DNA from: Lachnospiraceae bacterium
Lineage (GTDB): Bacteria; Bacillota; Clostridia; Lachnospirales; Lachnospiraceae
Reading direction: 5' to 3'
NCBI GenBank assembly: GCA_016287675.1
Contig: JAEFAR010000024.1
Span: 8,137 to 32,136 of the forward strand
DNA length: 24,000 nucleotides
Positions within the stretch are counted from its first letter, which is position 1, and each line of letters begins with the position of its first letter. The notes under the pieces were generated by a model, which was not told the origin of the DNA, made no database searches, and saw only the letters and a program-made list of their open reading frames with translations. Of the stretch, positions 2,915 to 21,145 are shown in pieces. The position numbers were made by a program, and so were the translations under genes.

Positions 2915-2960
2915 TTAAAAGAGCTCCGTTGCTTTACAGCTTCGAAGCTCTCTTTTTTTA
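2915..2960. terminator. Putative bidirectional terminator between the convergent SGNH hydrolase gene and the end of the long minus-strand operon
   Basis: AAAAGAGCT...AGCTCTCTTTTTTT, with an internal self-complementary AGCTTCGAAGCT. A-run and T-run flanks allow function on both strands. The loop is long, so the strength is uncertain. The T-run overlaps the last codons of the minus-strand ligase gene. Confidence 0.45.
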
Positions 2961-4622
2961 TTTGTTCGCATCCTCGTTTCTTATCTGGGCTCTCTTGATC
3001 TTTCCTCCGAGAGTCTTCGGAAGTTCATCCACAAACTCAACGATACGGGGATACTTGTAAGGAGCGGTGGCATGCTTAACATGATTCTGCAACTCCTTGA
3101 TGAGCTCCTCCGAAGGCGTGTAGCCCTTCGCCAGAACGACTGTCGCTTTAACTACCTGTCCGCGGATGGGATCAGGAGCTGCCGTGATGGCACATTCGAC
3201 AACCGCCGGATGCTCGATCAGAGCCGACTCGACCTCAAAGGGTCCGATACGATATCCGGAACACTTGATAACATCATCATGTCTTCCCACAAAGCGGTAG
3301 TAACCGTCATTATCCTTCCATGCAACATCCTTAAGGTTGTAGTCGCCTCCCTTAAATGCAGCATTGGTCTGCTCTTCGTTTTTGTAATAACCGATGAAGA
3401 GTCCCACCGGCGGATTCTTTTTTACTCCGCAGATAGTGATCTCTCCTTCTTCACCGCTCTCACACTCATTTCCGTTTTCATCCATGAGCTTGATATCGTA
3501 GATGGGTGAAGGCTTTCCCATGGCGCCCGGGATGGGTTCGAACCAGGGGAAATCGGCGAAGAGAACGGAGCCTTCGGTCTGTCCGAAGCCGGTGTGTATC
3601 TTTCCGCCGGTAAGTTCGAGCCAGCGGTTGTAAACTTCGGGGTTCAGAGGTTCTCCTGCCGTTGCGAAGTTCTGTATGCTTGAAAGATCGTAGCTCTTAA
3701 CATCCTCCTGCAGCATAAATCTGTACATCGTAGGCGGTGCGCAGAAGGTGGTGAGCTTGTAATCCTGCATGACCTGTAAAAGTCTTGCGGGTATGAATTT
3801 CTTCATATCATAACAGAAAACCGTAGCACCGCAGATCCACTGACCGTAGATCTTGCCCCAACCGAACTTTGCCCAGCCGGAATCGGAAACGCTCATGTGG
3901 AGCTTTCCTTCCCGGACCTGCTGCCAGTACTTGGCGGTAACTATGTGTCCGAGAGGATGGAAGTAGTTGTGTGTTACCATCTTGGGCATTCCGGTGGTTC
4001 CGGATGTAAAATAAAGCTGCATTACATCCGTACCCTTGGTAGCTTCCTCTCCCACAGGTCTTTCGAACACATCGGAACATTTCATGAATTCTTCGTCGAA
4101 GTCGATCCATCCGTCCTTCTTGACATTATCCACCAGTGCAAACTTCGTAACTCCGGGCATTTCCGGCTTTGCAAGCTCTACCTGGCTGATAACGTACTCA
4201 TCATCAACACACACCATCATCTTTACGCCTGCGGCGTTACAGCGATAGGCGATGTCCTTCTTTGTGAGCTGCAAAGTTGCAGGGATCAGGATCACACCGA
4301 GCTTTATAAGAGCTGTGGCACAAACCCAGTACTCCCACCTTCTTCTTAAGATCAGAAGAACAACATCTCCCTTTTTAAGTCCGCAGGATCTGAAGTAATT
4401 GGCGGCTCTGTTTGAAAGCTTGGACATATCCGAAAATGTGAAGCTCTTCTCATGTCCGTCATCATCGATCCAGAGCAGACATCTGAGATCGGGCTTTTCC
4501 TTTGCCCAGCCGTCCACTATGTCAAAGCCGAAGTTAAAGTTGTCGGGTGCATTTACTGTATAGTTCTTTTTAAAATCGTCGTAGGAATCAAATTCTGTTC
4601 TCGGTAAAAATCTCTCTAACAT
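2958..4622 (-). CDS. AMP-forming acyl-CoA synthetase, medium/short-chain (MACS/ACSM-like) family
   Basis: It carries the adenylation motifs YFTSGTTGMPKMV (A3), GFGQTEG (A5), SGYRIGPFEVESAL (A8) and LPKTLGGKIKR (A10 catalytic Lys). I chose the ATG at 4622 (MLERFLPR...) because GGAGA lies 8 nt upstream. The 4640 start in the ORF track would translate through that RBS. Confidence 0.9.
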   Translation of the reverse strand: MLERFLPRTEFDSYDDFKKNYTVNAPDNFNFGFDIVDGWAKEKPDLRCLLWIDDDGHEKSFTFSDMSKLSNRAANYFRSCGLKKGDVVLLILRRRWEYWVCATALIKLGVILIPATLQLTKKDIAYRCNAAGVKMMVCVDDEYVISQVELAKPEMPGVTKFALVDNVKKDGWIDFDEEFMKCSDVFERPVGEEATKGTDVMQLYFTSGTTGMPKMVTHNYFHPLGHIVTAKYWQQVREGKLHMSVSDSGWAKFGWGKIYGQWICGATVFCYDMKKFIPARLLQVMQDYKLTTFCAPPTMYRFMLQEDVKSYDLSSIQNFATAGEPLNPEVYNRWLELTGGKIHTGFGQTEGSVLFADFPWFEPIPGAMGKPSPIYDIKLMDENGNECESGEEGEITICGVKKNPPVGLFIGYYKNEEQTNAAFKGGDYNLKDVAWKDNDGYYRFVGRHDDVIKCSGYRIGPFEVESALIEHPAVVECAITAAPDPIRGQVVKATVVLAKGYTPSEELIKELQNHVKHATAPYKYPRIVEFVDELPKTLGGKIKRAQIRNEDANK

Positions 4623-4646: not shown

Positions 4647-5198
4647 CTACTCGGCGATCATTGTAAGGAAGGTTGCCGGCTTGTCGCCGTAGCACTTCTG
4701 ACCGTGTTTGTAGTTCGGGTTAAAATAAATACTGTCGCCTGTGTTTAAAATAATCTCCTGGTCGTCAAAGACGACGACGACACTGCCCGAAATGACAAGA
4801 TTGAATTCCTCTCCCTTGTGGCTTACAAGATCCGCGGGTTTGTCCGAAGGATCCAGAGTTACAAGGAAAGGTTGCATTATTTTGTTAGTGAAGCGATAGG
4901 CGAGATTTTCGAACTTGTATCCCGGATACCTGTCCGCGTTCTGGCCTTCGCCCTTACGAACCACCTGATAAGTACGAAGCTTTGCGCTGGTACCTGTCAT
5001 GATCTCGGAAAAATCCACGTGATAAAGCTTTGCCATTGAATAGATCACACTGATGGGAACGTTCGCTGCAGACTTCTCGTACTCATTGTAAGTCTCAGTG
5101 TCGATCCCCAGCTCGGATGCAACATATTCGGGTGTATAATCGCAAGCATCACGAAGGGCCCTGATCCTCTCAGCCAGTTCTTTTAATTCGTCTTCCAT
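4647..5198 (-). CDS. XRE-family HTH + cupin domain transcriptional regulator (PuuR/SutR-like architecture)
   Basis: The N-terminal part, LAERIRALRDACDYTPEYVASELGIDTETYNEYEKSAANVPISVIYSMAKLY, is an HTH_3-type helix-turn-helix. The C-terminal part, HKGEEFNLVISGSVVVVFDDQEIILNTGDSIYFNPNYKHG, is a cupin beta-barrel. It is clearly homologous to residues 1-195 of the 755-aa protein at 9870..12137. Confidence 0.85.
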   Translation of the reverse strand: MEDELKELAERIRALRDACDYTPEYVASELGIDTETYNEYEKSAANVPISVIYSMAKLYHVDFSEIMTGTSAKLRTYQVVRKGEGQNADRYPGYKFENLAYRFTNKIMQPFLVTLDPSDKPADLVSHKGEEFNLVISGSVVVVFDDQEIILNTGDSIYFNPNYKHGQKCYGDKPATFLTMIAE

Positions 5199-5233: not shown

Positions 5234-6301
5234 TCAATCGATCTTTACGATCCAGTTGTGCTCATCGGGAGCCTTACCCCACTGTATGGAAGTAAGTGTA
5301 TCATAAAGCATCTGAGTTGTCTTTCCTATTTCAAAATTATTGATCTTGTATTCCTTATCCTTGAAGATAAGTTCTCCGATGGGAGAAACAACAGCAGCCG
5401 TTCCGGTTCCCCATGCTTCTTCAAGTCTGCCGCTCTTTGCAGCTTCAAAAAGTTCATCAACGGAGATCCTTCTCTCTTCTACCTTGTATCCCTTAGCCTT
5501 CAGGAGTTCTATGCATGACTTTCTGGTAATTCCCGGAAGCACTGAACCTAAGAGTTCGGGAGTAACAACAACTCCGTCGATCTTGAACATAACGTTCATG
5601 GCGCCCACTTCTTCGATGTACTTTCTTTCAACACCGTCAAGCCAGAGAACCTGTGAGTAGCCCTTCTTTGCAGCCTTTTCGCCGGCTCTGTAGGATGCAG
5701 CGTAGTTACCGCCGCACTTTGCATATCCCGTGCCGCCTCTTACCGCACGAACATCCTCGTCCTCGATCATGATCTTAACGGGAGCGAGTCCTTCTGCATA
5801 GTAGCTGCCGGAAGGGGAACAGATCACGCAGAATGTGCACTGATGAACGGTGTGAACGCCGAGCTTGGGATCGGTTCCGATAAGGAAGGGACGGATGTAA
5901 AGAGAAGTTCCCTCCGAATGAGGCACCCAGTCCTTCTCCACTTCAACGATCTTCTTGATGCACTCAAGCATCTCCTCTTCAGGCATCTGAGGCATGCAGA
6001 GACGCTCTGCGGAATTGTTCATTCTGCGAACATTCTCGATGGGGCGGAAAAGCTGAACCTTTCCTTCTGCTGTTCTGTAAGCCTTAAGTCCTTCAAAGAT
6101 CTCGGCTCCGTAATGGAAAACTGCTGCTGCGGGTGAAAGTACGAAATCTGCGTAAGGCACGATCTCAGCATCCTCCCAGCCGTTCTCAGCCGTCCACTTG
6201 CGGATGAGCATATGATCCGAGAACACTGCTCCGAAGCCAAGCTTTGATTCATCTGTAGGTTTAGCTTTAGGCGAATTGGTAAGTTTTAAATTGATCTTCA
6301 T
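5234..6301 (-). CDS. ilvE: Branched-chain amino acid aminotransferase (PLP fold type IV)
   Basis: MKINLKLTNSPKAKPTDESKLGFGAVFSDHMLI...YGAEIFEGLKAYR...LYIRPFLIGTD...GTGYAKCGGNYAAS...GITR...GTGTAAVVSPIG is typical of the long-form BCAT. The ATG at 6301 is preceded by GGAGGG at 7 nt. The 6376 extension has no RBS. Confidence 0.9.
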   Translation of the reverse strand: MKINLKLTNSPKAKPTDESKLGFGAVFSDHMLIRKWTAENGWEDAEIVPYADFVLSPAAAVFHYGAEIFEGLKAYRTAEGKVQLFRPIENVRRMNNSAERLCMPQMPEEEMLECIKKIVEVEKDWVPHSEGTSLYIRPFLIGTDPKLGVHTVHQCTFCVICSPSGSYYAEGLAPVKIMIEDEDVRAVRGGTGYAKCGGNYAASYRAGEKAAKKGYSQVLWLDGVERKYIEEVGAMNVMFKIDGVVVTPELLGSVLPGITRKSCIELLKAKGYKVEERRISVDELFEAAKSGRLEEAWGTGTAAVVSPIGELIFKDKEYKINNFEIGKTTQMLYDTLTSIQWGKAPDEHNWIVKID

Positions 6302-6352
6302 ATTTATCCCTCCGTTTTCTTTATTTTCCCTTTTACACTTAAAATCGGAACA

Positions 6353-6401
6353 CAGTGTAAGCACTTTCCCGGCCAAATAACGGCGGAGACAGCTTACACT
6401 G
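6353..6401 (-). other. Intercistronic stem-loop formed by a perfect 10-bp inverted repeat with an inner GC stem
   Basis: The minus-strand RNA reads CAGUGUAAGC-ugucu-CCGCC-guuauuu-GGCCGG-gaaagu-GCUUACACUG. It sits between the gamma-subunit stop (6439) and the ilvE start (6301). A third partial copy, AGUGUAA, lies about 15 nt downstream. Confidence 0.6.
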
Positions 6402-6438: not shown

Positions 6439-6972
6439 TTACATATTGTAGCCTGTTTCAAGAGCTTTCTTGTTGAACTCAAGCATATCCTGATGTCTTG
6501 CGGAAATGATCTTTCCAAGTACCTTGTCAACGGAATCCATTTCAAATCCGGGGATCTCTTTGATGAGTTTTCCGGTAATGATCATGTTTGCAAGTGTGCT
6601 GATGTTCATGTCATTGGCTGTCTTTGTAGCCGGAATGTAGAAGACCTCCACATCCGTTCTCTCAACCTTTTTGTCGATGAGTGTTGAATCGATGAAGATC
6701 TTTCCTCCGGGTACTACGGAAGCCTCAAACTTCTCAAGAGAAGGAAGATTCATTGCCACCAGTACATCGGGCTTGTTTACAATGGGAGAACCGATGGGTT
6801 CGTCACTGATGATGACGTTACAGTTTGCCGTACCGCCTCTCATCTCGGGGCCGTAGGAAGGAAGCCAGGAAACCTGCTTGTCCTCGATGAGTCCCTTATA
6901 TGCCATGAATTTTCCCGCAAAGAGGATACCCTGACCGCCGAAGCCTGCGAATAACATTCTTGTTGTAGCCAT
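6439..6972 (-). CDS. 2-oxoacid:ferredoxin oxidoreductase, gamma subunit
   Basis: MATTRMLFAGFGGQGILFAGKFMAYKG...SYGPEMRGGTANC is the canonical gamma-subunit N-terminus of the POR/VOR/KOR family. Its ATG overlaps the beta-subunit stop (TGATG), which indicates translational coupling. Confidence 0.9.
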   Translation of the reverse strand: MATTRMLFAGFGGQGILFAGKFMAYKGLIEDKQVSWLPSYGPEMRGGTANCNVIISDEPIGSPIVNKPDVLVAMNLPSLEKFEASVVPGGKIFIDSTLIDKKVERTDVEVFYIPATKTANDMNISTLANMIITGKLIKEIPGFEMDSVDKVLGKIISARHQDMLEFNKKALETGYNM

Positions 6973-7724
6973 CAGTTGTTACCTCCTTCTGCGTAAATGT
7001 CCTTGTAAACGCCCAGAGGATAGTAGGGGATCATGTCTGTCTGGATGAACTCCAGCGCCTTCTCGGGGCTCTTTCCCCAGTTTGTGGGGCAGGAAGAAAT
7101 GACCTCAACAAGTGAGAAGCCCTTTCCTTCAACCTGATTCTTGAATGCATGAAGAATAGCCTTTTTAGCCTTTCTGACATTTGCAACGTTGTTTACCGCA
7201 ACTCTCTCGAGGTAAGCAGCGCCGTCAACCTTTGAAAGCATTTCGCACATCTTCATGGGATAACCTACTGTGTTAACATCACGTCCGTAGGGAGAAGTCT
7301 GCGTAACCATTCCGGGAAGAGTGGTGGGAGCCATCTGACCGCCTGTCATTCCGTAGATCGCATTGTTTACGAAGATAACGGTGATGTTCTCTCTTCTTGC
7401 TGCGGAATGAACGATCTCGGCCGTTCCGATGGAAGCGAGGTCTCCGTCACCCTGGTAGGTGAAGACGATCCTGGAGGGATCGGAACGCTTTACGCCTGTG
7501 GCAACTGCCGGAGCACGTCCGTGAGCTGCCTGAACGCAGTCAACATCGAAGTAATCATATGCCATAACGGAGCATCCTACGGAAGCCACGCAGATGGACT
7601 GTCCCTGTATGCCCAGCTCATCAATGGCTTCGGCAACAAGGCGATGAATGATACCGTGGGTGCAACCGGGGCAATAGTGCAGGGTCGCATCGGTTAATGC
7701 TTTGGGTTTGTGAAATTCAGCCAT
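6972..7724 (-). CDS. 2-oxoacid:ferredoxin oxidoreductase, beta (thiamine-diphosphate-binding) subunit
   Basis: The N-terminal Cys motif is YCPGCTHG. The TPP-binding motif is GDGDLASIG...NNAIYGMTGGQ. Its start overlaps the alpha-subunit stop (TAATG). Confidence 0.9.
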   Translation of the reverse strand: MAEFHKPKALTDATLHYCPGCTHGIIHRLVAEAIDELGIQGQSICVASVGCSVMAYDYFDVDCVQAAHGRAPAVATGVKRSDPSRIVFTYQGDGDLASIGTAEIVHSAARRENITVIFVNNAIYGMTGGQMAPTTLPGMVTQTSPYGRDVNTVGYPMKMCEMLSKVDGAAYLERVAVNNVANVRKAKKAILHAFKNQVEGKGFSLVEVISSCPTNWGKSPEKALEFIQTDMIPYYPLGVYKDIYAEGGNN

Positions 7725-8785
7725 TAGTTTTCACCTCCGTTTACTTTTTCGATGGAGGCAAGCACCTCTTCGGGGGAAGGGATCATTCCGCCCGTGCGGT
7801 TGCAAAGGTAAACAGGTTTCTTGCAACGCTCGGCAAGCTCTACATCCTGGATCATCTGACCCATGTTCATTTCAACAGTGATAAATGCCTTGACCTTGTC
7901 AGCTGCCTCTAAGATGGGCTTCTTGGGGAAAGGCCAAAGGGTGATGGGACGGATCATGCCCACCTTGATGCCCTTTGCACGAGCTGCAACAATGGCATTC
8001 TTTGAAACTCTGGCAGTGATACCGAAGGAAACGATGCAGATCTCAGCATCATCCATCATGTAGGATTCGTACATGACTTCGTTCTCTTCCACTGTCTTAT
8101 ACTTTTCAAAACGTTCAAAATTCTTCTGCTCAAGCTGTTCAGGCTTTAAGTAAAGGGAATTGACGATGTTTCTGGGTCTCTTGCATTCTGTTCCGGTGAG
8201 AGCCCAGGGCTTTGCAACCTCTTCGATCACGATGTCGTCAATGGCAACGGGCTCCATCATCTGGCCCATGGTTCCGTCTGCGAGGATCATGCATACCATG
8301 CGGTACTTGTCGGCAAGGTTGAATCCCTTTGCTGTGAGCATTGCCATCTCGGAAACGCTTGAAGGTGCAAGGACGATGTTATGGTAATCGCCATGGCTTC
8401 CGCCCTTTGTAGCCTGGAAGTAGTCGGACTGGGAAGGCTGGATGCCTCCGAGACCCGGTCCGCCTCTCTGGACATTGACCACAAGTGCGGGAAGATCGCA
8501 TCCTGCAAGATAGGAAATACCCTCACTCTTTAAGGAAACTCCCGGTGAAGATGAGGAAGTCATTACTCTCTTTCCTGTAGAAGATACGCCGATCACCATG
8601 TTGATCGCCGCGATTTCGCTTTCAGCCTGTAAAAATGTTCCTCCGATCTTGGGCATGCGCTTTGACATGTAAGCCGCAACCTCCGTCTGGGGTGTGATCG
8701 GATAACCGAAGTAGTAACGGCAGCCTGCCTTGATGGCAGCTTCTGCGATAGCTTCGTTACCCTTCATCAAAACTTTCTCTGACAT
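7724..8785 (-). CDS. vorB: 2-oxoacid:ferredoxin oxidoreductase, alpha subunit (VorB/KorA-like)
   Basis: MSEKVLMKGNEAIAEAAIKAGCRYYFGYPITPQTE is the typical alpha-subunit N-terminus. The ATG at 8785 is preceded by GGAGAA. The 8812 extension overlaps the delta gene. The symbol is tentative because VOR versus KOR substrate specificity cannot be read from the sequence. Confidence 0.85.
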   Translation of the reverse strand: MSEKVLMKGNEAIAEAAIKAGCRYYFGYPITPQTEVAAYMSKRMPKIGGTFLQAESEIAAINMVIGVSSTGKRVMTSSSSPGVSLKSEGISYLAGCDLPALVVNVQRGGPGLGGIQPSQSDYFQATKGGSHGDYHNIVLAPSSVSEMAMLTAKGFNLADKYRMVCMILADGTMGQMMEPVAIDDIVIEEVAKPWALTGTECKRPRNIVNSLYLKPEQLEQKNFERFEKYKTVEENEVMYESYMMDDAEICIVSFGITARVSKNAIVAARAKGIKVGMIRPITLWPFPKKPILEAADKVKAFITVEMNMGQMIQDVELAERCKKPVYLCNRTGGMIPSPEEVLASIEKVNGGEN

Positions 8786-8801
8786 AGGTGTTCTCCTTCC
8801 C

Positions 8802-9008
8802 TTAATTCTCAACAGTAATTACGCAGTCAGGGCACATTAGTGCACAGGATGCGCATCCGATGCAGGCATCGGTATCTATGCATTTTGCCGGATGATGTCC
8901 TTTTGCGTTCAGCACGTTCTCATCCAGTGCCACGATCTTTTTGGGGCAAGCTGTCACACAAAGCCCGCAGCCCTTGCAAACATCACTTTTAAATGAAATC
9001 TTCGCCAC
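8802..9008 (-). CDS. 2-oxoacid:ferredoxin oxidoreductase, delta subunit (2x[4Fe-4S] ferredoxin-like)
   Basis: It has two CxxCxxCxxxCP clusters, CKGCGLCVTACP and CIGCASCALMCP. It has a GTG start with GGAGGA 7-8 nt upstream. Confidence 0.85.
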   Translation of the reverse strand: MAKISFKSDVCKGCGLCVTACPKKIVALDENVLNAKGHHPAKCIDTDACIGCASCALMCPDCVITVEN

Positions 9009-9079: not shown

Positions 9080-9745
9080 TTAAACTATCTTGTCTTGTAA
9101 ATGAATGACCATGAGGTTTTCGATCTTATCCTTCACCTCATCGTAGACCTTCCGGGTCACTGTCGTGAATCTGATGGGGATACCCGCCATTTCGGACACT
9201 TTTTGAGCAAATTCCACGCTTTCGAGAACATCTTCCGCCGTAGTTTCCTCACCGAGATTCGAATCATTAACGATCCCCGTGAATCTCATGTTTGCCGTGG
9301 TCTCTATCTCGTGCATGATTTCCATCGCCAGTTCCGGAGTTTTGGACAGGGGCCTGAATCTGTTTAAAACCAGAAGCAGTTCGTAGTCGTTCTCTTCCTT
9401 GATCGCATCTGCGTAGCGCCCAAGGGCCGTGGCTCCTCTGTCATCTCCGCCTATGTCAAAGATCGCATATCTGTCATGAATGTCAACCAATGAATAGATC
9501 TCTGCGGGAAGAGCGGGAAGATCCACATTTGATCCTGCATATAAAGACGAGATCAGCGTTATTCCGTTTTCTTCCAATTCCTTTTGGCTGTCCTTGGTCC
9601 TGAAGTAGGGATTTACAATGTCGAGATCGGCTATGGCCACATCCAGTCCCTTTTTCTTCAGCATCAGTGCATAATTAACAGCCACGTTGGTTTTTCCGCT
9701 GCCGTAGTGTCCGGCAAACAAAGTCACTCTTTTAAGCTTGTCCAT
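9080..9745 (-). CDS. P-loop NTPase of unknown function (MinD/ParA/CooC-like SIMIBI fold, classical Walker A)
   Basis: MDKLKRVTLFAGHYGSGKTNVAVNYALMLKKKGLDVAIADLD contains the Walker A motif GHYGSGKT, and AIFDIGGDD is Walker-B-like. The ATG at 9745 is preceded by AGGAGA. The 9802 extension lacks an RBS. Confidence 0.7.
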   Translation of the reverse strand: MDKLKRVTLFAGHYGSGKTNVAVNYALMLKKKGLDVAIADLDIVNPYFRTKDSQKELEENGITLISSLYAGSNVDLPALPAEIYSLVDIHDRYAIFDIGGDDRGATALGRYADAIKEENDYELLLVLNRFRPLSKTPELAMEIMHEIETTANMRFTGIVNDSNLGEETTAEDVLESVEFAQKVSEMAGIPIRFTTVTRKVYDEVKDKIENLMVIHLQDKIV

Positions 9746-9869
9746 TTTTCTCCTGTTAAAAGTATAATTATTCAGTTTATAACTTTTAAATACATTTTGC
9801 AAGCATTATTTCTTTAACGTTGTGAAGCAGTACCATTAAAAAATTTTACATTATTCAGAAGAAGCCCTT

Positions 9870-12137
9870 TTAAAGCGCTTTTCTGATAACTTTGCCGCTT
9901 ATGGTCTTGGGAAGCTCGGTTCTGAATTCCACGATCCTGGGATACTTGTAGGGAGCTGTCTTTTCCTTGACGTAATTCTGTATCTCTTTCTTAAGATCTT
10001 CGGTTCCTTCCTTGCCGGGAACAAGAACTATGCATGCTTTAACCACCTGTCCTCTGACGGGATCGGGAGCTGCACATACGCCGCATTCAAGCACATAAGG
10101 AAGTTCCATGATGACATTCTCGATCTCGAAGGGTCCGATCCTGTATCCCGAAGACTTGATGACGTCGTCGATCCTGGAAACATACCAGAAGTAACCGTCC
10201 TCATCCTTGTAGGCGATGTCTCCTGTGTGGTAATAGCCGTCATGCCATGCTTCTTTTGTCTTGTCAGGCTCTTTGTAGTACTCCAGAAGAAGTCCGCAGG
10301 GGATACCGTTCTTGGTGCTGATGCAGATCTCTCCGTTTTCCGCGGTACCCACGGGATTTCCTTCTGTGTCCAGCAGTTCCACATCATATGCGGGTGAAGG
10401 CTTACCCATTGAGCCCGGCTTCGGCTTCATGCCGACCAGGTTTCCGATCGTGAGTGTGGTCTCGGTCTGTCCGAAACCTTCCATAATATCAAGTCCCGTA
10501 GCCTGCTTGAACTGATAGAACACTTCGGGGTTCAAAGCTTCACCTGCGGTAGTCGCGTGCTCTATGCATGAAAGATCGTATTTTGTAAGGTCCTCCTTAA
10601 TGAACATTCTGTACATTGTGGGAGGTGCGCAGAAGGTGGTGATGGGATACTTGGCAAAAAGTTTCAGTATGTCATCCGCATGGAAGCGCTCGAAATCGTA
10701 AACGAATACTGCCGCTTCATTAAGCCACTGACCGAAGAGCTTGCCCCAGAGGGATTTGCCCCAGCCTGTGTCCGAAATCGTAAAGTGGAGGCCATTGGTC
10801 CTTACGCAGTGCCAGTACTTAGCTGTGATGAAATGTCCCAAAGCATACGTACAGGAATGGAGTACCATCTTGGGATAGCCGTTGGTGCCGCTGGAGAACA
10901 GCATGATCATGGGATCTTCGCCCTTTGCGCTGTCGGCGGTTCTTAAATACCTTCTGGAGAAGAAAACGTACTCGTCATCGAAATTTCTCCAGCCATCCTT
11001 GTGTCCGCCGACGATGATCTTGTTCTGAAGGAAAGGACATTCCTTTGCCGCATCGTCAACGGCATCTGTCGTACCGTCCGAAAACGTACATACGATGGAA
11101 TGGATGTCACCTGCCCTGAAGCGGTAGACAAAGTCATGACTCTTAAGCTGATTCGTGGCGGGAACAACAATCGCCCCGATCTTATTCAGTGCCAGGAAGG
11201 CTACCCAGAACTGATAGTGACGCTTGAGTACCAGCATTACCCTGTCGCCTTTTTTGATACCCAGGGATGTGAAGTAATTTGCCGCCTGATTTGAAAGTTC
11301 CTTGAATTCCTTAAATGTAAAACGTCTTTCGTTCTTGTCTTTGTCCAGATGGATCATTGCCAGCTTGTCGGGCTTTGTCTTTGCGATCTCATCCACAATG
11401 TCAAAAGCGAAATTGAATTTATCCGTGTTTTTAAAGTTGATGCTGTGGAAGCTTCCGTCTTCGTTGTCAACGCTGTCGATGAAGTTTTCGTAAACCAGTC
11501 CCTTGGTCTGCTTTGCACGTACGATAGCTTCCGTCGCAAAGCCGTTATCCTGTTCGTCGGATGCCATGATCATGGCGATGAACTTGCAGGCTTTTCCGCC
11601 AACAGCGATCATTCCGTGGGGCTTGCCGGAAGTGTAGTAGATGGAGTCTCCGGCATTCAGGATCTCCACATGTTCACCCACCTGCACTTTCAGCGATCCT
11701 TCAACGATGTAGTCAAATTCCTGGCCTGAATGTATCGTGGTGTGAATGGGAAGGTTCTGCAGCTTTTCATCGTAATCGTAAGTAACGAGGTAGGGCTCGG
11801 CAAGCTTCTTCTTGAAGTAGGGTGCAAGGTTCTGGATGAGCTCTCCGGCTTCGTTTGCTGTTGTAAGACCCATGCCTCCTCTTACCACATTGTAAGAAGA
11901 AAGTCTTGCACTCTGTCCCTCGATAAGTTCTGTCATCTCCAGTCCGAAAGCAAGTGCACATTTGTGCACAAACGTAAAGGGAAGTTCCGCTTCACCGTTC
12001 ATGTAAGCATTGAAATGCTCCATATCGACTTCTGCCTTTGCTGCAAGCTCTTCGTCGGAATAGCCTTTGATATCCTGCATATCACGTATTCTCACGACGA
12101 CTTCGTTCACTTGATCTTTCATTTCCGGCTTAACCAT
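9870..12137 (-). CDS. Fusion protein: N-terminal XRE-HTH + cupin regulator module (about aa 1-195) joined to an AMP-forming acyl-CoA synthetase (about aa 236-755)
   Basis: The N-terminal part, RIRDMQDIKGYSDEELAAKAEVDMEHFNAYMNGEAELPFTFVHKCALAFG...HSGQEFDYIVEGSLKVQVGEHVEILNAGDSIYYTSGKPHG, aligns along its length with the stand-alone regulator at 4647..5198. The C-terminal part has the ligase motifs FSSGTNGYPKMV, GFGQTET, SGYRIGPFEIENV and LPKTISGKVIRK. The ATG is preceded by AAAAGGAGAAAAACC. Confidence 0.9.
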   Translation of the reverse strand: MVKPEMKDQVNEVVVRIRDMQDIKGYSDEELAAKAEVDMEHFNAYMNGEAELPFTFVHKCALAFGLEMTELIEGQSARLSSYNVVRGGMGLTTANEAGELIQNLAPYFKKKLAEPYLVTYDYDEKLQNLPIHTTIHSGQEFDYIVEGSLKVQVGEHVEILNAGDSIYYTSGKPHGMIAVGGKACKFIAMIMASDEQDNGFATEAIVRAKQTKGLVYENFIDSVDNEDGSFHSINFKNTDKFNFAFDIVDEIAKTKPDKLAMIHLDKDKNERRFTFKEFKELSNQAANYFTSLGIKKGDRVMLVLKRHYQFWVAFLALNKIGAIVVPATNQLKSHDFVYRFRAGDIHSIVCTFSDGTTDAVDDAAKECPFLQNKIIVGGHKDGWRNFDDEYVFFSRRYLRTADSAKGEDPMIMLFSSGTNGYPKMVLHSCTYALGHFITAKYWHCVRTNGLHFTISDTGWGKSLWGKLFGQWLNEAAVFVYDFERFHADDILKLFAKYPITTFCAPPTMYRMFIKEDLTKYDLSCIEHATTAGEALNPEVFYQFKQATGLDIMEGFGQTETTLTIGNLVGMKPKPGSMGKPSPAYDVELLDTEGNPVGTAENGEICISTKNGIPCGLLLEYYKEPDKTKEAWHDGYYHTGDIAYKDEDGYFWYVSRIDDVIKSSGYRIGPFEIENVIMELPYVLECGVCAAPDPVRGQVVKACIVLVPGKEGTEDLKKEIQNYVKEKTAPYKYPRIVEFRTELPKTISGKVIRKAL

Positions 12138-12263: not shown

Positions 12264-12305
12264 AAAAAGAAAACGTCCCAAGATTAGTAAACTAATCTTG
12301 AGACG
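12264..12305 (-). terminator. T-box expression-platform terminator
   Basis: CGUCUCAAGAUUAG-uuua-CUAAUCUUGGGACG forms a 14-bp stem with one G-U pair and is followed by UUUUCUUUUU. Its 5' arm overlaps the 3' arm of the antiterminator. Confidence 0.85.
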
Positions 12306-12547
12306 AAATATTCATTCCGCGGTACCACTCAATTTCCTGCTTGGCAGGCTCTTTAAGGTCTTACAACCTCTTTGCACTAACGTAGCTCTCACGTAGGCCA
12401 CTACTCGCTTTCGCTTTCGCATCCTCAGCTCGGAAGGGATTGGATGATCTTAAGTTCTTACAGGCTCGCACCAAACGCCTGCTCTCTGAAAAGAAGTTTT
12501 AAAAGTCCGTCTTCGTCACAGCTTTTATTCAATACCTTATTTAATTG
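12264..12547 (-). promoter_or_regulatory. T-box riboswitch leader (tRNA-sensing transcription attenuator)
   Basis: Read on the minus strand, the leader contains the following elements. K-turn/GA motif: AGCUGUGACGAAG...CUUCCGAGCU. AG bay: CAGAGAG. Distal stem: CAGGC/GCCUG with an 11-nt loop GUUUGGUGCGA. Stem III: CCUGC-caa-GCAGG. T-box sequence: AAAUUGAGUGGUACCGCGG (12317..12335). Antiterminator: UUGAG/CUCAA flanking the 7-nt bulge UGGUACC. A mutually exclusive terminator follows. Confidence 0.85.
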
Positions 12548-12553: not shown

Positions 12554-12582
12554 ACTTTACCACTTTAAATTATCTTTGTCAA
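12554..12582 (-). promoter_or_regulatory. Sigma-A promoter driving the T-box leader (TTGACA-17-TAAAGT)
   Basis: The reverse complement of 12577..12582 is TTGACA and of 12554..12559 is TAAAGT, with a 17-nt spacer. The -35 overlaps the TGA stop codon of the upstream glycoside-hydrolase-like gene. Confidence 0.7.
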
Positions 12583-15500
12583 GAAGGTATTTTAAAAAGT
12601 TCAGGACGCTTCAAAATTCCGAAGGGATCCGGCTTGTATTCGTAGCTCCAGCTTGCCCCGACGGTTCTCCACGAATCGGGATCCTGATGTCTGTACTGTC
12701 GGTCGCAGAGATGCAAGGGACTGAAGGTGTTGTTCCTGTTTCCGAAAGCAGTGAGGCGGATCTCATGTTTTCCCCTCTTCACGCCGCGGATCAGGCATTC
12801 ATAAGGTGAAAATGCAATGTTTCCGGCGTCTTTTCCGTCCAGCTCAACTTTAATAAGAGGGCATCTGAAATCCGTCGCTCTGACAAGAAGATCTCCGTCA
12901 TTCCCGAGCTCAATGTCCCAGATGTAGCTTAAGTTTCCGCTGTAAAAAGGAAGATCCTGCCTTGAAATGTCGCCAAAGCCGAGAATCTCGGGCTTTTCGA
13001 CAATGACTGCCTTTGAGCCTTTAAGTCTCACGCCGAAATCACCGAGGACGTACAATGCTTCCAGTTCCTTGATCTTTCCGGACAGCGTCTTTAAAATGAG
13101 TTCATTCCTTCCTTTTTTCAAAACACCGAGGGCGATCCTGTCTATGTCACGATCCACGAAGAAGCCTTCCTTCTTCATTTCGACCGCACGGTCGTTAAAG
13201 ATCAGTTCATAATTCTCGGGTTTTTCAATACCGAGCGAGAGTTCTGTGCCTTCGATCTCCGACTCAAAACTGTATCTGAGCGTAAGGTCGCGCGTGTACT
13301 CAAACCCGTCGTCCATTGCCCACGGCTGCGGATAGGCATGCTGCCGCACGGTTCCGCCCGCTTTCTCGCGAAGGATGTTGTCGATCCTTAAGATCTCCTC
13401 TTTTTTACCGAACTCTTCGTCTCCGATCCTGTATTCCGCCATGTCCAGAAGCAGCACATTCGGCTCGGCAAGTTCGATCTTCACGTTCTCGGGCACTTCC
13501 AAAGAGAGACTTTCTCCTCCCGGCCTGCATTCATCGGCCGGCTTTGCAAAAGCCGCAGCCTCTTCCTTCAAAGGAACAAGTTTCAGCAAAAGGCTGTCAT
13601 GGTCGAAAAACTCCTTTTCGATAAATGTCCTTCCGTTTTCCGCCCTGAAAGGGATCTCATAAATGTCCCCGGTCAGCGCATCGTAGACCACGGGCTTAAA
13701 CATGCCTTTTAAGCATATATGGAGGTTATCCTTGTGAGGGATGTCCACAGGCTCATTTCTGAAGGCATGAGCCAAAAAGAGCCAGTTGCATTCTTCCTCA
13801 GACCGCATCTGATAGATCAGGTTTCCGACAGGATTTCCCCTGTCATCACGTATCTCAACGATCTTCTGATCCTTAAGGGCATTAAGGATCGAATACCTGT
13901 CAAAGCCCACCTTCGTAAATCCCGTGCATATTTTTTCAAGAGAATCGTCGGGTTTTGCATTAATATGCGTGGGTGTCCGGCCCGCAATGATGACTTTGCC
14001 GCCCGCTTCCGCAAAAGCTTTAAGTGCATCGATCGTGGTTTTTCTTATCGTGATGAGGTCAGGGACAACAACGGCATCGTATCTCATTTCGCCGCACACG
14101 AACTTTCCGTCTTCAACACCGTTCTTAAAGCCCGCAAGGAGCGATTCGGAGATAAGATCAAAGTCGACGGATCCGAGCAGAAGCCATGATGTCAGGTTTT
14201 GGAATTCCTCATCCCTCTGCCTTCTGAGTTCTCCGGTCTGTTCTTCGTTGCCCCATAGGAGCCAGAAGGACTCTATCGGATGGATCACGCCCACTTTTAC
14301 GACCGGCTTTCCTCTTGTGAGAGCCGTGTTGATCCTTGCAAAATAGTCCTCAACGTGCTTGTATTCTTTGTACCATGGCGACTGATAGCCGATCGATGCG
14401 GGATAGTCACGTTTTGCTTCTCCCGCCATTGATGTCCATGTAAGGTGCGGAACCCGCACAGTTACTCCGAGGGCAGCCTGCCAGTCTCCCTGAAGCTTGT
14501 GTCCTCTGAAGTCAAAATTGTAGCCGGTAACGCCGTAAAGCTCGCTCATGATCCCGGGAGCGCCCTTTTGATGAGCAGCACTTTGAGCCTGCTTTGCGGT
14601 GGTGAATTCTCTGTGATCGCAGAGCATGTCTATGCCCGGAATGTCAAATCCGCGGTAGGAACGCATGGCTTCGCCGAGACAGGCTGTCTGAGAAGTAAGA
14701 GTGGGCTCTTCCATCATATGCCCGGTCATCAGGATGTTGTGTTTCCTGCACCAGTCTCCGATATTGTCCGCAAAGCTTTCCGCAAACCGTTCGCAGACAA
14801 AATCGTGGTATTCGTATCTTGTAACGGAGTATTTTCCTTCTCCCGCTTCCCAGAAAAGCTCCGGAAGGCTGTCAAGCAGGCTGTGTCCGTATCTCTTCGT
14901 AAAGTCATCCTCAAAATCGTCCGAGAAGGGGATCTTGACCGTTCTGCTGTCCTCCGCAAAGCCCAGCCTTTCCTTTGATGCGAACTGGGGTTCATCCGTG
15001 AATATTGCGGGAATGTCCTTTCCGAAGCCGTCTCCGAGCTCGGAATAGTATTTGTCATGCGTTATCCTTATGAATTCGTCGATGGCCTTCTTGTCCAAAG
15101 TGTTTACATATGCCTGATAATTGAACCAGGGATTATCACCGCAGACTTCGAGAAATGCCCATCTCGTCTTCATCCCGGGTCTTGCGCTCTCGTTCTCCTT
15201 AAGCCTTCTGTAGGATTTAAGGAATCCGTCTTTGAGCTCGATCTCGTACTTCGCAAGGAGGACATTGTCGTCTCCTCTTACGGGCACGGCGCAAGAACTG
15301 TAATGGCGCTCTCTTTTCAGTTTTTCACGGTCTTCCTTCTCCTCTTCCGTGAAAACGAGGAACCTCTCCCTGAAGTGCCGGTCCTTCGTCACAAACCCGC
15401 CTGCCGAGCCGGACGGCCATCTGTCTTCATCATAGAGCCACGTGAGCATTCCGTTCTTTTTGAAATTCTCGCGTGCTTTCTTAATGAGTTCCATGAACTC

Positions 15501-15704
15501 TTCTCCGAGGTACACGTTTCCGAGTCCGATCCTCGAATGAAGATGTGCGCCTCCCATGCCCATGTCCTTAAAGACTTCGGTCATGAGATCCACTTTTTCT
15601 TTTGTCATCTTCGTGTTCCACGCCCAGAAAGGAGTTCCTCTGTATTCCGCTCCCGGGTCTTTGAACACTTCATCCGTTAATTTTTTGGTGTTTTCATATA
15701 ACAT
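12579..15704 (-). CDS. Large cytoplasmic glycoside-hydrolase-like protein (family not assignable by eye)
   Basis: The product is 1041 aa with no signal peptide. The N-terminus YRGTPFWAWNTKMTKEKVDLMTEVFKDMGMGGAHLHSRIGL...WLYDEDRWPSGSAGG recalls TIM-barrel glycosidases that PGAP annotates generically as glycosyl hydrolase. A mid-region VVVPDLITIRKTTIDALKAFAEAGGKVIIAG resembles the GATase1-like module of GH42 and lacto-N-biose-phosphorylase-type enzymes. The C-terminus is beta-rich. The ATG at 15704 is preceded by GGGGGTGA. The 15782 extension is rejected. Confidence 0.5.
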   Translation of the reverse strand: MLYENTKKLTDEVFKDPGAEYRGTPFWAWNTKMTKEKVDLMTEVFKDMGMGGAHLHSRIGLGNVYLGEEFMELIKKARENFKKNGMLTWLYDEDRWPSGSAGGFVTKDRHFRERFLVFTEEEKEDREKLKRERHYSSCAVPVRGDDNVLLAKYEIELKDGFLKSYRRLKENESARPGMKTRWAFLEVCGDNPWFNYQAYVNTLDKKAIDEFIRITHDKYYSELGDGFGKDIPAIFTDEPQFASKERLGFAEDSRTVKIPFSDDFEDDFTKRYGHSLLDSLPELFWEAGEGKYSVTRYEYHDFVCERFAESFADNIGDWCRKHNILMTGHMMEEPTLTSQTACLGEAMRSYRGFDIPGIDMLCDHREFTTAKQAQSAAHQKGAPGIMSELYGVTGYNFDFRGHKLQGDWQAALGVTVRVPHLTWTSMAGEAKRDYPASIGYQSPWYKEYKHVEDYFARINTALTRGKPVVKVGVIHPIESFWLLWGNEEQTGELRRQRDEEFQNLTSWLLLGSVDFDLISESLLAGFKNGVEDGKFVCGEMRYDAVVVPDLITIRKTTIDALKAFAEAGGKVIIAGRTPTHINAKPDDSLEKICTGFTKVGFDRYSILNALKDQKIVEIRDDRGNPVGNLIYQMRSEEECNWLFLAHAFRNEPVDIPHKDNLHICLKGMFKPVVYDALTGDIYEIPFRAENGRTFIEKEFFDHDSLLLKLVPLKEEAAAFAKPADECRPGGESLSLEVPENVKIELAEPNVLLLDMAEYRIGDEEFGKKEEILRIDNILREKAGGTVRQHAYPQPWAMDDGFEYTRDLTLRYSFESEIEGTELSLGIEKPENYELIFNDRAVEMKKEGFFVDRDIDRIALGVLKKGRNELILKTLSGKIKELEALYVLGDFGVRLKGSKAVIVEKPEILGFGDISRQDLPFYSGNLSYIWDIELGNDGDLLVRATDFRCPLIKVELDGKDAGNIAFSPYECLIRGVKRGKHEIRLTAFGNRNNTFSPLHLCDRQYRHQDPDSWRTVGASWSYEYKPDPFGILKRPELFKIPS

Positions 15705-15726
15705 GGCTTCACCCCCTGTTAAGGAA

Positions 15727-15755
15727 ATAATAGTGCTTTCCGTATCCCAAGTCAA
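15727..15755 (-). promoter_or_regulatory. Sigma-A promoter for the glycoside-hydrolase-like gene (TTGACT-17-TATTAT)
   Basis: The reverse complement of 15750..15755 is TTGACT and of 15727..15732 is TATTAT, with a 17-nt spacer. It lies about 25 nt upstream of the ATG. Confidence 0.65.
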
Positions 15756-15856
15756 CCTTACGAAGGTGTATATAAAGCGCAAAAAAGTGAGCCATCCCGC
15801 CCTGCGGAACTGCCCACGATGATGAATTGTTGCTTTACTGCATGTGTCGGAAGATC

Positions 15857-15902: not shown

Positions 15903-17657
15903 TTAATTTACAAATCCCACGGCTGCACTGGTCACCGACTTACCGTTGTACGTAATGGTGACGCGGACGTACTTGAGATGGGTCTGGGCATATACGGAAT
16001 CATAGCTTGCTCCGTCCGGAACAGTGTCCGAAATGTTCAAAGTTCTGGAGTTTCCCACACCGTCGATCTCTGTCCATGCTGTTGCATTCTTTGCGGCTGC
16101 GTACTCCCACTTGAATTCGAAATCATCAAGATCGGTAGACAGCTTTGATGTCAGGTTCGTGCTGGGGTTAGCAGTCAGTGTGAATCCGAGCTTCGGGCTT
16201 CCGGAGATGGAAGCATAGGTCAGAGCCTTTGAGTAATCAAGACTCGGCGAGCAAAGCCTGTAAGGTGAAGGAAGTTCGGTCTTGGTTCCGGTCTTTCTCA
16301 CAACTATGATGGATCCGCTCACTGCTCTGCTGTAAGCGATCTTGGTGTAGCTGTTTGCCTTTAATGTGGTCCACTGCATGTTTGTAACGGGAAGCTGCGA
16401 GTAAGCAGTTGCGGAGACCGTTGCCCCCGCTGCAGGGAAATTGGAAAGTCCGTATCTTGCAGCATCCGTGGGAGTGAGCACAGCAACCTGAAAATCGCAG
16501 TCATTGTTGTTGGTAATCTGGATGCCGCCGTTACCTGACTTTGAAGAAACGTATTCTATCTCAATGTTTGCCTGCTCTGCAGCAGAAAGGGTTCCGGATG
16601 TGGGCACGGTGATCTCTGTGATACGGCTGGCTGCAGCCCTCTGTGCGCCTGCGGTTCTGACGTAAAGCACCGCAGAGGATGTTATGGGATCCGACATGGC
16701 AAGCCCAAGAGCCTGCTGTGCAAGGAATTTTGTTGTCCTCACGGAAGTGGTGATGGGCTCGATGGCGGTGAGTCTGTCCGTGGAAGGCACCGTAGCTTCA
16801 TCGGTGGTGGCATTTGAGGCAAAAACGGGGATCAGAGTCCAGTTTTCTCCGTCCAGTGAGAATTCCTGTCCGTTCTTTAAATTGATGGTTCCGTCAATAA
16901 GATTAATGTTAACGATAGGTCCCGGAAGAATCTTTGCCAGAGTGTATCTCGCAACTCCCGAAGAACGGTTTCCGATGCCGTTTGCATCGTCTGCCTGGCT
17001 GACGGATCTTATGCGGAACTCAAGTGCTCCGCCGCGGATCTCCATCTCATGAGGATCCAGGTCCTTAAATTCATGCCAGTTTCCGTTGGTGCCTTTACGC
17101 CATTCTATGTTCTCAAGTTCCAGATAAGTCTGGTCCCTGTTGTTGACCTTTTTGGTAAAAATGAAGTATCCCGTGTCTTCACCGAAATGTACGGCGTAAT
17201 CAGGCTCCGCATACTTCGCTTTCCAGCTCTCTGCATCCGTGATGTCCGTTGCGAGAAGTGTTCCCGTGAACTTCACGCCGAGAGTGTCCTGCCACTTGAG
17301 CACTATGCTCGAGATCTTTGTGTGGTTGTCACCGCAGATGTAAACCTTTACATCCGCATTGCTCCTCGCCCAGGAGAAGTCAAACATGGCCACATCATCG
17401 CGTACATCGCAGCAGTACCATTTTGAAATGTCGGCGGTATAGGTGTCGGTGAAGTAGATCTTTTCATCCCTATCTCCTGCGGAAAGAGAGCTTTCATCTA
17501 TGATCACGGACATTCTGTCGTAATCGATGGTTATGAGGTTACTCGGCACTGCCACTCCTGCGGAAGCAAAGACACCGTCGTCAGCATTCAGTCCCACAGC
17601 CATCGCGATCAGTGTAACAACAGCGATAAGCCGCAAGATCAACCTTTTCGTTTTCAT
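15903..17657 (-). CDS. Secreted protein of unknown function (584 aa, Sec signal peptide, beta-rich)
   Basis: MKTKRLILRLIAVVTLIAMAVGLNADDGVFASA has a positive n-region, a hydrophobic core and an ASA cleavage site. The ATG at 17657 is preceded by GGAGGG. I recognise no motif, LPXTG signal or lipobox. It is only 40 nt downstream of the flgN/fliT-like gene, with no terminator between them. Confidence 0.7.
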   Translation of the reverse strand: MKTKRLILRLIAVVTLIAMAVGLNADDGVFASAGVAVPSNLITIDYDRMSVIIDESSLSAGDRDEKIYFTDTYTADISKWYCCDVRDDVAMFDFSWARSNADVKVYICGDNHTKISSIVLKWQDTLGVKFTGTLLATDITDAESWKAKYAEPDYAVHFGEDTGYFIFTKKVNNRDQTYLELENIEWRKGTNGNWHEFKDLDPHEMEIRGGALEFRIRSVSQADDANGIGNRSSGVARYTLAKILPGPIVNINLIDGTINLKNGQEFSLDGENWTLIPVFASNATTDEATVPSTDRLTAIEPITTSVRTTKFLAQQALGLAMSDPITSSAVLYVRTAGAQRAAASRITEITVPTSGTLSAAEQANIEIEYVSSKSGNGGIQITNNNDCDFQVAVLTPTDAARYGLSNFPAAGATVSATAYSQLPVTNMQWTTLKANSYTKIAYSRAVSGSIIVVRKTGTKTELPSPYRLCSPSLDYSKALTYASISGSPKLGFTLTANPSTNLTSKLSTDLDDFEFKWEYAAAKNATAWTEIDGVGNSRTLNISDTVPDGASYDSVYAQTHLKYVRVTITYNGKSVTSAAVGFVN

Positions 17658-17697
17658 GGCATTCCCTCCTTGCATATACTTAAAAGCCACGGAGCAG

Positions 17698-18192: not shown

Positions 18193-18207
18193 TTCTCCAA
18201 TGCGGGA

Positions 18208-18588: not shown

Positions 18589-18613
18589 ATTCTTTTTCCT
18601 CCGATTTCATTAA

Positions 18614-20518: not shown

Positions 20519-20577
20519 ATGCTTTACCTCCAAATTCCTTTTTCTTTTTTGCGCTTCCCTGCGTAAGAGTTAATTGG

Positions 20578-20997: not shown

Positions 20998-21051
20998 TTT
21001 GCTCCCTCCGTTATTATTTCCTCTTTCTTATACTTCGGTCTTCTGTGTATT

Positions 21052-21079: not shown

Positions 21080-21101
21080 CGAAGAAAAATAAAATTTTTG
21101 T

Positions 21102-21133: not shown

Positions 21134-21145
21134 ATGTTTTCTTTC

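Follow-up and report, generated by a model that had tools for sequence, protein, structure and literature searches.

An XRE-cupin module fused to an acyl-CoA synthetase in a T-box-preceded operon of rumen and gut Clostridia, with a predicted role in branched-chain acid salvage

Results

The fused gene and its leader

We describe here a gene cluster in a 24,000-nucleotide stretch of DNA from a Lachnospiraceae bacterium (GenBank assembly GCA_016287675.1, contig JAEFAR010000024.1, positions 8,137 to 32,136 of the forward strand), referred to below as the window. The cluster is an operon of nine genes, all co-directional from position 12137 down to 2958. Its first gene encodes a helix-turn-helix (HTH)/cupin module fused to an acyl-CoA synthetase, and the same two components recur as separate, adjacent genes at its far end. 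One promoter-like site and one T-box terminator lie upstream of the operon; no terminator-like sites were found in its internal intergenic gaps. The fused gene and the elements preceding it are as follows, in window coordinates; helices are those of an AlphaFold2 (AF2) model, and pLDDT is the predicted local distance difference test score.

12554..12582, minus strand: promoter-like site TTGACA-17-TAAAGT, TG-extended; the sole 10-of-12 match in a 10-kb region, a consensus match only
12296..12528, minus strand: T-box leader (Rfam RF00230, 100.6 bits against a gathering score of 93, E 2e-21), T-box sequence GUGGUACCGCG
12438-12440, minus strand: specifier codon AUC (Ile), one base 5' of the CUUC helix
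12274..12305, minus strand: intrinsic terminator of the leader, 14-bp stem followed by a T-run, overlapping the 3' end of the Rfam match
9870..12137, minus strand: fused protein, 755 aa, HTH/cupin module plus MacS-type branched short-chain acyl-CoA synthetase; Ile class, predicted substrate 2-methylbutyrate
11922..12119, minus strand: five-helix XRE-type HTH, residues 7-72 (AF2 helices 7-24, 28-34, 39-46, 54-64 and 68-72; net charge -8 to -9)
11562..11801, minus strand: cupin barrel, residues 113-192 (Pfam Cupin_2, E 5e-13), triad H136 / E140 / H174
11433..11561, minus strand: linker from module to ligase, residues 193-235, poorly conserved, pLDDT below 50 at 193-211
9873..11432, minus strand: ligase domains, residues 236-755 (A7 YHTGD; A8 RIDDVIKSSG)
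10869-10898, minus strand: motif A3 of the ligase, FSSGTNGYPK
10758-10763, minus strand: acyl-pocket residues W459-G460 of the ligase domain
9891-9893, minus strand: A10 lysine of the ligase domain, K749

To read the specifier codon, the leader was put in register with the Rfam consensus and with the homologous leaders of related loci. By its score, in-register codon, T-box sequence and terminator, the leader qualifies as a member of RF00230. Leaders of this kind switch on the genes behind them when the cognate tRNA is uncharged.

The open reading frame (ORF) of the 755-residue fusion, first noted in a preliminary description of the locus, is uninterrupted, and the fused architecture recurs in independent assemblies. 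When 5.8 billion proteins were searched for homologues, the 120 best matches were all about 755 residues long, with identical domain order and 64-97% identity; their hosts are Lachnospiraceae, Oscillospiraceae, Ruminococcaceae and other Clostridia. Databases name the fusion merely "AMP-binding protein" or "cupin domain-containing protein". An exact-sequence lookup of the window protein gave no match, the nearest cluster being 97% identical. A scan of one genome per species returned at least 598 related stretches, and all 80 of the best 80 loci, which we analysed further, encode the full-length fusion. Nearly all come from rumen or gut metagenome-assembled genomes (MAGs), and 114 complete fused ORFs were extracted from them. 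The fusion is genuine, ancient and widespread in rumen and gut Clostridia.

In the fused protein, Pfam recognises Cupin_2 at residues 135-188, AMP-binding at 249-610 and AMP-binding_C at 671-749. The two ligase families score above their gathering thresholds both here (198.5 and 75.1 bits) and in the split paralogue (216.8 and 79.3 bits). The fused ligase has all core motifs: the A3 P-loop, A5 GxGxTE, A7 Y-x-[STA]-G-D, the A8 hinge and the A10 lysine. The last of these had been reported for both ligases and is indeed present in each (PKTISGK and PKTLGGK). The A3 P-loop, located at the same positions by the preliminary description, had been called unusual, a view that does not hold. Its asparagine is a lineage-specific variant within the normal T/S/A/N range, confined to 7 of 121 sequences (the window protein and its six closest relatives, at 84% identity or more), the other 114 having T or S; in the Ile-class species set the residue is T in 63 of 67, and in the active enzyme MacsMa it is Ala. 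Since just these seven close relatives have Asn and active MacsMa has Ala, we rejected the idea that the P-loop marks a pseudo-enzyme.

The remaining genes of the operon

Downstream of the fused gene lie a P-loop NTPase, four genes for a 3-methyl-2-oxobutanoate (2-ketoisovalerate):ferredoxin oxidoreductase (VOR), a branched-chain amino acid aminotransferase (BCAT), and the split module and ligase.

9080..9802, minus strand: P-loop NTPase, divergent MinD/Mrp-like (SIMIBI), Cys-free (Pfam CbiA, 32 bits)
8802..9008, minus strand: VOR delta subunit (VorD), 2x[4Fe-4S] ferredoxin-like, 68 aa; two CxxCxxCxxxCP motifs, Fer4 families in orthologues
7724..8812, minus strand: VorB, alpha subunit of VOR (NCBIfam NF005507, 535.5 bits against a cut-off of 399; Pfam POR_N and PFOR_II)
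6972..7724, minus strand: VOR beta subunit, thiamine pyrophosphate-binding (Pfam TPP_enzyme_C; NCBIfam 2-oxoacid:ferredoxin oxidoreductase beta matches below cut-offs)
6439..6972, minus strand: VOR gamma subunit (Pfam POR; NCBIfam gamma-subunit matches below cut-offs)
5234..6376, minus strand: IlvE, branched-chain amino acid aminotransferase, class IV (NCBIfam NF009897, 483 bits against 307; TIGR01123, 403 against 250)
4647..5198, minus strand: stand-alone HTH_3 + Cupin_2 protein, 183 aa, triad H127 / E131 / H165; starts 35 nt after ilvE
2958..4622, minus strand: ligase of the split type, 554 aa when read from the ATG at 4622; Ala in the pocket (GWAK), like the Val class; A7 YNLKD

The four-subunit VOR appears complete, VorB being recognised by a model above its cut-off, beta and gamma by Pfam and delta by its cysteine motifs. 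Ligase, VOR and BCAT together make up the gene set needed to convert 2-methylbutyrate and isobutyrate into Ile and Val by reductive carboxylation. The NTPase, of about 220-240 residues, may start at an internal methionine (MDKLK...), and a close relative was looked for in the PDB without success. Its gene separates the ligase from vorD in nearly all fused loci and precedes vorD in split ones, and to judge by this gene order the NTPase is a conserved partner of VOR. We considered and rejected a role for it as a NifH-like Fe-S ATPase driving reductive carboxylation, as it is cysteine-free and has only weak MinD/Mrp/SRP matches. The 24-nt gap reported between the stop of the stand-alone module gene and the ligase ATG at 4622 was confirmed; a GGAG precedes the ATG, and split-ligase orthologues start MLEKFLPR.

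Upstream, between the operon and a flagellar cluster (fliD, fliS, flagellin, fliW; 17698-23953), lie two large ORFs on the minus strand (12579-15782 and 15903-17714; 1067 and 603 residues) almost without family matches. The larger gives merely a weak Glyco_hydro_42M and rhamnosidase-like signal.

Fused and split versions have diverged together

The preliminary description recognised the pairing of a fused and a split version, and our comparisons bear out the paralogy of both parts. Residues 6-190 of the fused protein align end to end with the stand-alone module (34% identity, E 3e-35) and residues 239-755 with the split ligase (49% identity, E 4e-180). Absent from that description were the T-box, the VOR/BCAT context, the association of T-box with fusion and the existence of module-free ligases.

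In neighbour-joining trees the module and the ligase domain show the same deep topology, split pairs standing against fused proteins, and in both trees the fused branch holds an Ile class and a Val class (defined below). Because the tree shapes are congruent, the partnership between module and ligase would be older than both the split/fused and the Ile/Val divergences. The split ligase forms a separate conserved orthogroup, whose context was read in 70 metagenomic loci with enough upstream sequence. An HTH-cupin gene lies upstream of the ligase in 42 of them, at a distance of 150 nt or less in 38, and the pair either follows VOR genes or stands as an isolated two-gene unit, regardless of its other neighbours. 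The earlier argument that the locus is a Rosetta-stone case is supported: the components are fused or separate but adjacent depending on the genome, and they diverge together. Congruent trees and conserved adjacency in split loci likewise uphold the claim of a functional link.

Two observations on split loci may be added. One subclade of split-type ligases, which shares 68-70% identity with the window copy and derives in the main from human-gut assemblies (loci L110-L120, L125-L135 and L138-L149), has neither an HTH-cupin gene nor a T-box. In 28 loci the ligase is solitary amid housekeeping genes, and the neighbours checked (in L116 and L140) were purH and purD followed by uvrC, or a P-type ATPase. 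The two related loci L102 and L106 share a conserved hairpin, ACACGCC...GGCGTGT, in the gap that separates vorC from the HTH-cupin gene, about 100 nt ahead of that gene; it could be a terminator or a regulatory site.

Gene order was mapped by tblastn over 88 loci. The commonest layout is fused ligase, fused ligase, NTPase, VorDBAC, BCAT, and tandem fusions occur in about 35 of the 88. In a second layout a single fused ligase precedes NTPase and VOR, and BCAT may or may not be present (L001 and L003 exemplify these first two layouts), and a third is a solitary fused gene. The order ligase, NTPase, VorDBAC, BCAT is repeated across dozens of species. A 777-residue ORF upstream of the L004 cluster was examined as a further fusion and proved unrelated.

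T-box codon and acyl pocket define two ligase classes

A T-box core, GTGGTACCGCG, lies 80-380 nt upstream of nearly every fused gene, each tandem member included; RF00230 scores elsewhere are 111.4 bits in L001, 81.7 for the second copy of L003 and 73.9 for its first. The leaders fall into two codon classes. Those of the first-copy class, about 70 in number, read ...AUC(A/C)-CUUC... (Ile class), and the 36 of the second-copy class read GUA or GUC followed by a purine (Val class). The T-box tracks the fused state: about 106 of 114 fused genes have one, as against 1 of 70 split-type loci. In Oscillospirales the order is T-box(Ile), ligase, T-box(Val), ligase, NTPase, VOR, BCAT (L003, L011, L015-L018, L028-L032 and others), which places the shared VOR and BCAT behind two serial T-box terminators. 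In L025, L027 and L031 a second tandem fused copy lies about 100-125 nt after the first and has no T-box; these copies form a branch of their own in the module and ligase trees.

The closest solved relative of the ligase is MacsMa (3ETC), which matches over the whole ligase part at E 4e-188. The best NCBIfam model is the methylbutyryl-CoA synthetase MbcS (NF047394), whose equivalog cut-off of 850 bits is missed by both copies (fused 451, split 445), so that the window ligases are, by these scores, relatives of MbcS and not equivalogs. Residue W459 aligns with the GWGK tryptophan of 3ETC, which we take to be Trp259 of MacsMa, and is invariant in all 102 fused proteins compared. MacsMa, the medium-chain acyl-CoA synthetase of Methanosarcina acetivorans, prefers 2-methylbutyrate, and Trp259 shapes its acyl pocket (PMC10455477). 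The residue that follows the pocket tryptophan tracks the T-box class. MacsMa has Gly there, as do the Ile-class ligases (67 of 67), whereas Val-class ligases have Ala in 34 of 35 cases and split-type ligases in 119 of 120. That the larger C5 acid goes with the smaller residue is as expected. This position may therefore serve as a one-residue predictor of preference for C5 or C4 branched acids. By the same rule the split ligase of the window would be an isobutyrate/Val-type partner, and the fused and split pair would together do the job of the tandem Ile and Val fusions of Oscillospirales.

One feature of the split orthogroup departs from the superfamily. Its A7 motif is invariably YNLKD (Y428-D432 of the 554-residue protein), which fails the consensus Y-x-[STA]-G-D with its highly conserved Gly (PMC3438747); a Lys replaces the Gly that positions the ribose-binding Asp. 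This deviation, overlooked at first, is more striking than the supposed oddity of the P-loop.

The ligases share their subfamily of the ANL superfamily with MacsMa and MbcS, neither of which has an N-terminal HTH/cupin module. The fused ligase has both the pocket Trp and the following Gly in common with MacsMa, and the split paralogue differs from MacsMa and MbcS by its YNLKD. MbcS itself, from S. aureus, supplies primers for fatty acids and is not known to serve amino acid synthesis.

The module retains its fold and an invariant, putatively metal-binding triad

In the split copy HTH_3 (32.9 bits, Pfam cut-off 23) and Cupin_2 (55.1 bits) are both recognised. In the fused copy Cupin_2 scores 48.9 bits, and Pfam HTH_3 or HTH_19 was not detected, these families being on record for most of its homologues. 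AF2 folds the isolated module into a five-helix XRE domain and a cupin barrel (pLDDT 85.5). In a model of the full-length fusion (predicted template-modelling score, pTM, 0.64) the connector between HTH and cupin and the linker to the ligase are of low confidence. Within-class identity is 0.54-0.66 for the HTH, 0.64-0.68 for the cupin and 0.70 for the ligase N-domain, against 0.31-0.37 for the linker. On this measure the module is not decaying and would still be functional.

It had been proposed that the cupin His motifs are degenerate and that this suggests ligand sensing and not catalysis. They are not simply degenerate, and the conclusion does not follow. The H-x3-E...H triad (H136/E140/H174 in the fused copy, H127/E131/H165 in the split one) is invariant in alignments A1, A2 and A4 and is common to the repressor PuuR. 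A family profile of the module matches 1y9q, a putative regulator of the HTH_3 family, at E 2e-13 and the enzyme HppE at E 3e-10 over both domains, the H, E and H falling on the GHAGNEF...PH residues of HppE, which we take to be its Fe(II) triad. A PDB sequence search with the split module alone found no match; only the family profile reached 1y9q and HppE. Foldseek ranks 1y9q first, HppE at positions 2-17, and then HEPD, MPnS and Psf4. The HppE-like match (E 4.5e-13 by Foldseek) would imply a two-domain alpha plus cupin fold with a 2-His-1-Glu triad. HppE is a non-haem Fe(II) enzyme of two domains, the helical one having a structural role (PMC9088020). As the architecture is thus found in transcription factors and in enzymes alike, a Pfam HTH match is no proof of DNA binding.

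The module also diverges with ligase class. In a relaxed search (at least 65% conservation per class), 19 of 235 module positions separate the Ile and Val classes, as against 3 of 520 in the ligase, a density about ten times higher. They include F141C, beside E140, and several residues of the first barrel strands. A strict search (at least 85% per class) gave no class-specific residues in the cupin. The relaxed pattern suggests that the module reads something class-specific.

DNA binding by the module

The module had been called DNA-binding, a label that rests on homology and sits poorly with three properties of the HTH. The first is net charge, which can stand for DNA binding only indirectly. 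Over the 61 residues of the HTH core it sums to -8 in the fused copy and -6 in the split one, with a mean of about -5 over 102 fused proteins; among proven repressors it is +3 (PuuR) and +4 (SutR), and it is +3 in 1y9q and -4 in HppE. The second is the recognition helix. Helix 3 reads x-x-x-E-x-Y-x-x-Y-E-x-G, with conserved core positions; its exposed positions are the least conserved in the HTH, and none holds a conserved basic or polar residue. The third is that no shared target came to light. We compared inverted repeats with shuffled sequence in the promoters of 98 fused genes and in 30 regions upstream of split pairs. The best perfect arms were only slightly longer than in shuffled controls, 6.2 nt against 5.6 nt (fused) and 6.6 against 5.3 nt (split). 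No shared operator motif was found in either set, strong repeats being mostly terminators or AT runs.

Discussion

The model we favour, to which we give a probability of about 0.5 as a whole, is a salvage operon under an Ile-specific T-box whose first enzyme has acquired a metal- and ligand-binding regulatory module, with the HTH recruited for structure or oligomerisation. The data behind it are the fused architecture and how widely it is conserved, the T-box with its two classes of codon, the gene neighbourhood, the homologies and the charge pattern described above. All its components are of known kinds, namely an ANL ligase, an XRE-cupin module, a T-box, VOR and BCAT. We found no paper that assigns such a salvage pathway to a T-box-controlled ligase/NTPase/VOR/BCAT operon, and none that describes an HTH/cupin-ligase fusion.

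The pathway, taken alone, we consider highly probable: the operon would convert branched-chain volatile fatty acids into Ile and Val. An AMP-forming ligase of the MacS/MbcS type would activate 2-methylbutyrate (fused copy) or isobutyrate (split copy) to the acyl-CoA, the four-subunit VOR would carboxylate the acyl-CoA reductively to the 2-oxo acid with reduced ferredoxin, and IlvE would transaminate the 2-oxo acid to Ile or Val. Uncharged tRNA-Ile would turn the operon on. Since T-boxes respond to uncharged tRNA, starvation for Ile or Val is expected to induce the AMP-forming ligase, VOR and BCAT. It has been known since the 1960s that many fibre-degrading rumen anaerobes depend on isobutyrate, 2-methylbutyrate and isovalerate, from which they make branched-chain amino acids, and branched-chain volatile fatty acids are also used as feed additives. 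Their place as Ile and Leu precursors in rumen anaerobes has been restated for methanogens (PMC10658910). The chemistry we predict, from acid to acyl-CoA to 2-oxo acid to amino acid, is that of the classical reductive carboxylation of the rumen, and the habitat is the same, our loci coming from rumen and gut MAGs.

As to the module, we favour a metal- and ligand-sensing regulatory domain of the ligase over a classical repressor. It would descend from XRE-cupin regulators and act, in this lineage, on protein and not on DNA. We picture a domain that contains a metal (2-His-1-Glu), binds a ligand and tunes or gates the ligase, from within the same chain in fusions and from a separate partner subunit in split pairs. 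The five helices of the HTH would then serve structure or oligomerisation, as the helical domain does in HppE. What the module binds could be the acid itself, its 2-oxo acid or the amino acid, all of which can chelate a 2-His-1-carboxylate centre. A precedent for an enzyme in which an XRE-like HTH has a structural use is the HppE/HEPD/MPnS group: it matches the module in both domains (with Foldseek at E about 1e-12), with the triad aligned, and the helix 2-3 region is acidic in HppE as in the module. These enzymes differ from the module in sequence (about 19% identity) and in acting on phosphonate substrates with O2 or H2O2. It is tempting to speculate that an XRE-cupin factor has been exapted as an allosteric, metal-dependent sensor of an adenylate-forming ligase, its HTH no longer reading DNA, and that this gives fast, class-specific control over the ATP-costly first step; in this specific form the idea is possible, at odds somewhat below even.

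Several points weigh against the model. Direction and substrates of the pathway and a post-translational role of the module are deduced, the direction from T-box logic and AMP-forming chemistry. In 28 of 70 loci the split-type ligase is module-free, which implies that the module is dispensable for catalysis. The full-length AF2 model (pTM 0.64, linker pLDDT below 50) gives no confident docking of the module onto the ligase. Furthermore, the closest characterised relatives of the module, PuuR and SutR, are DNA-binding repressors, its top structural match, 1y9q, is annotated as a transcription regulator, and many split loci have the module gene as leading cistron after a promoter of its own and contain no T-box.

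The last of these points lead to the alternative that survives best, although we hold it to be rather unlikely, namely that the HTH binds an operator. The split protein would then be a ligand-responsive local repressor and the fusion a BirA-like enzyme-repressor, a trigger enzyme that adds an input from substrate availability to the product-shortage input of the T-box. XRE-cupin factors act as local repressors of neighbouring metabolic genes (PMC7901475). The module resembles these factors (PuuR and SutR of E. coli and the Pseudomonas family) in the order of its domains, a five-helix HTH_3 and then Cupin_2, in the invariant H-x-G-x-E...H and, in split pairs, in the adjacency of its gene to linked metabolic genes. 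Homology to PuuR (NF007408, E 3e-6) and to 1y9q speaks for a repressor, as do the purifying selection on the five-helix HTH, the enrichment of class-specific residues there too (8 of 72) and, in the split copy, an HTH_3 score above the Pfam cut-off. The case is strongest for the split form. Its gene heads sigma-70-like promoters in T-box-free loci, a layout that is classic for an autoregulated local repressor, and in some split loci inverted repeats lie over the -10 box, for example TTATAATA-N10-TATTATAA in L005. However, the HTH is strongly acidic, unlike those of PuuR and SutR, its recognition helix is unconserved, with exposed residues that are variable and acidic, and the repeats upstream rise only marginally above the shuffled level, with no operator in common. 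Unlike XRE-cupin factors, moreover, the module is joined covalently to an enzyme in hundreds of species, and fused genes are under a T-box; the split gene of the window has merely 35 nt upstream and sits inside the T-box-controlled operon. Known trigger enzymes (BirA, PutA, NadR) do unite a DNA-binding-type fold and a metabolic enzyme in one polypeptide, as here, and BirA, like ANL ligases, forms an adenylate intermediate. They differ from the fusion in their DNA-binding fold (here XRE plus cupin) and in their enzyme family, and in the fusion DNA binding is only putative, with the proxies against it. Given the acidic HTH, the variable helix 3, the search that yielded no common inverted repeat, the control already exerted at the RNA level and the match to HppE, the module is probably not a classical repressor.

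An improbable reading is that the cupin is catalytic, an HppE-like mononuclear metalloenzyme with a structural HTH that couples a chemical step one to one to the ligase, acting on the acid, the acyl-adenylate, the acyl-CoA or the 2-oxo acid. The profile match to HppE with aligned triads, the run of HppE, HEPD, MPnS and Psf4 in the Foldseek ranking, and the likeness to HppE in HTH charge and helix-3 signature are what it would explain. Yet ligase, VOR and BCAT already form a complete route with no missing step, and HppE-type chemistry needs O2 or H2O2, which fits badly with anaerobic gut and rumen hosts. The triad is no sign of catalysis, since the repressor PuuR has it too, no phosphonate genes were found among the ORFs scanned across the window, and the module-free ligases count against this reading as well.

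Very improbable, in our view, is a catabolic operon in which BCAT and then VOR would break down Ile and Val to branched-chain acids in a fermentation, with the ligases serving another purpose. BCAT and VOR are reversible and run oxidatively in many amino-acid fermenters, which is the point in its favour. Against it, induction through a T-box signals a shortage of Ile or Val, AMP-forming ligases drive the acid towards the acyl-CoA and conserve no ATP, and the operon scan shows neither a phosphotransacylase with a kinase nor an ADP-forming synthetase. Finally, that an assembly or frameshift error joined two genes is practically inconceivable, as the same architecture of about 755 residues stands in hundreds of independent assemblies and nothing was found in favour of such an error, the window protein itself being missing from the contig index and a 97% identical one present there.

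If the favoured model is correct, this operon lets many rumen and gut Clostridia make Ile and Val from branched-chain volatile fatty acids. The physiology of branched-chain acids in the rumen would gain a genetic handle from a conserved operon marked by its T-box, and the codon of the riboswitch, together with a single pocket residue (Gly or Ala), would allow the acid used by each ligase to be predicted from sequence. Should the module prove to be a sensor that does not bind DNA, it would be a case of a transcription-factor scaffold recruited as the regulatory domain of an enzyme; should it bind DNA, the fusion would be a new trigger enzyme of the BirA kind, one that takes its inputs from both a riboswitch and a repressor.

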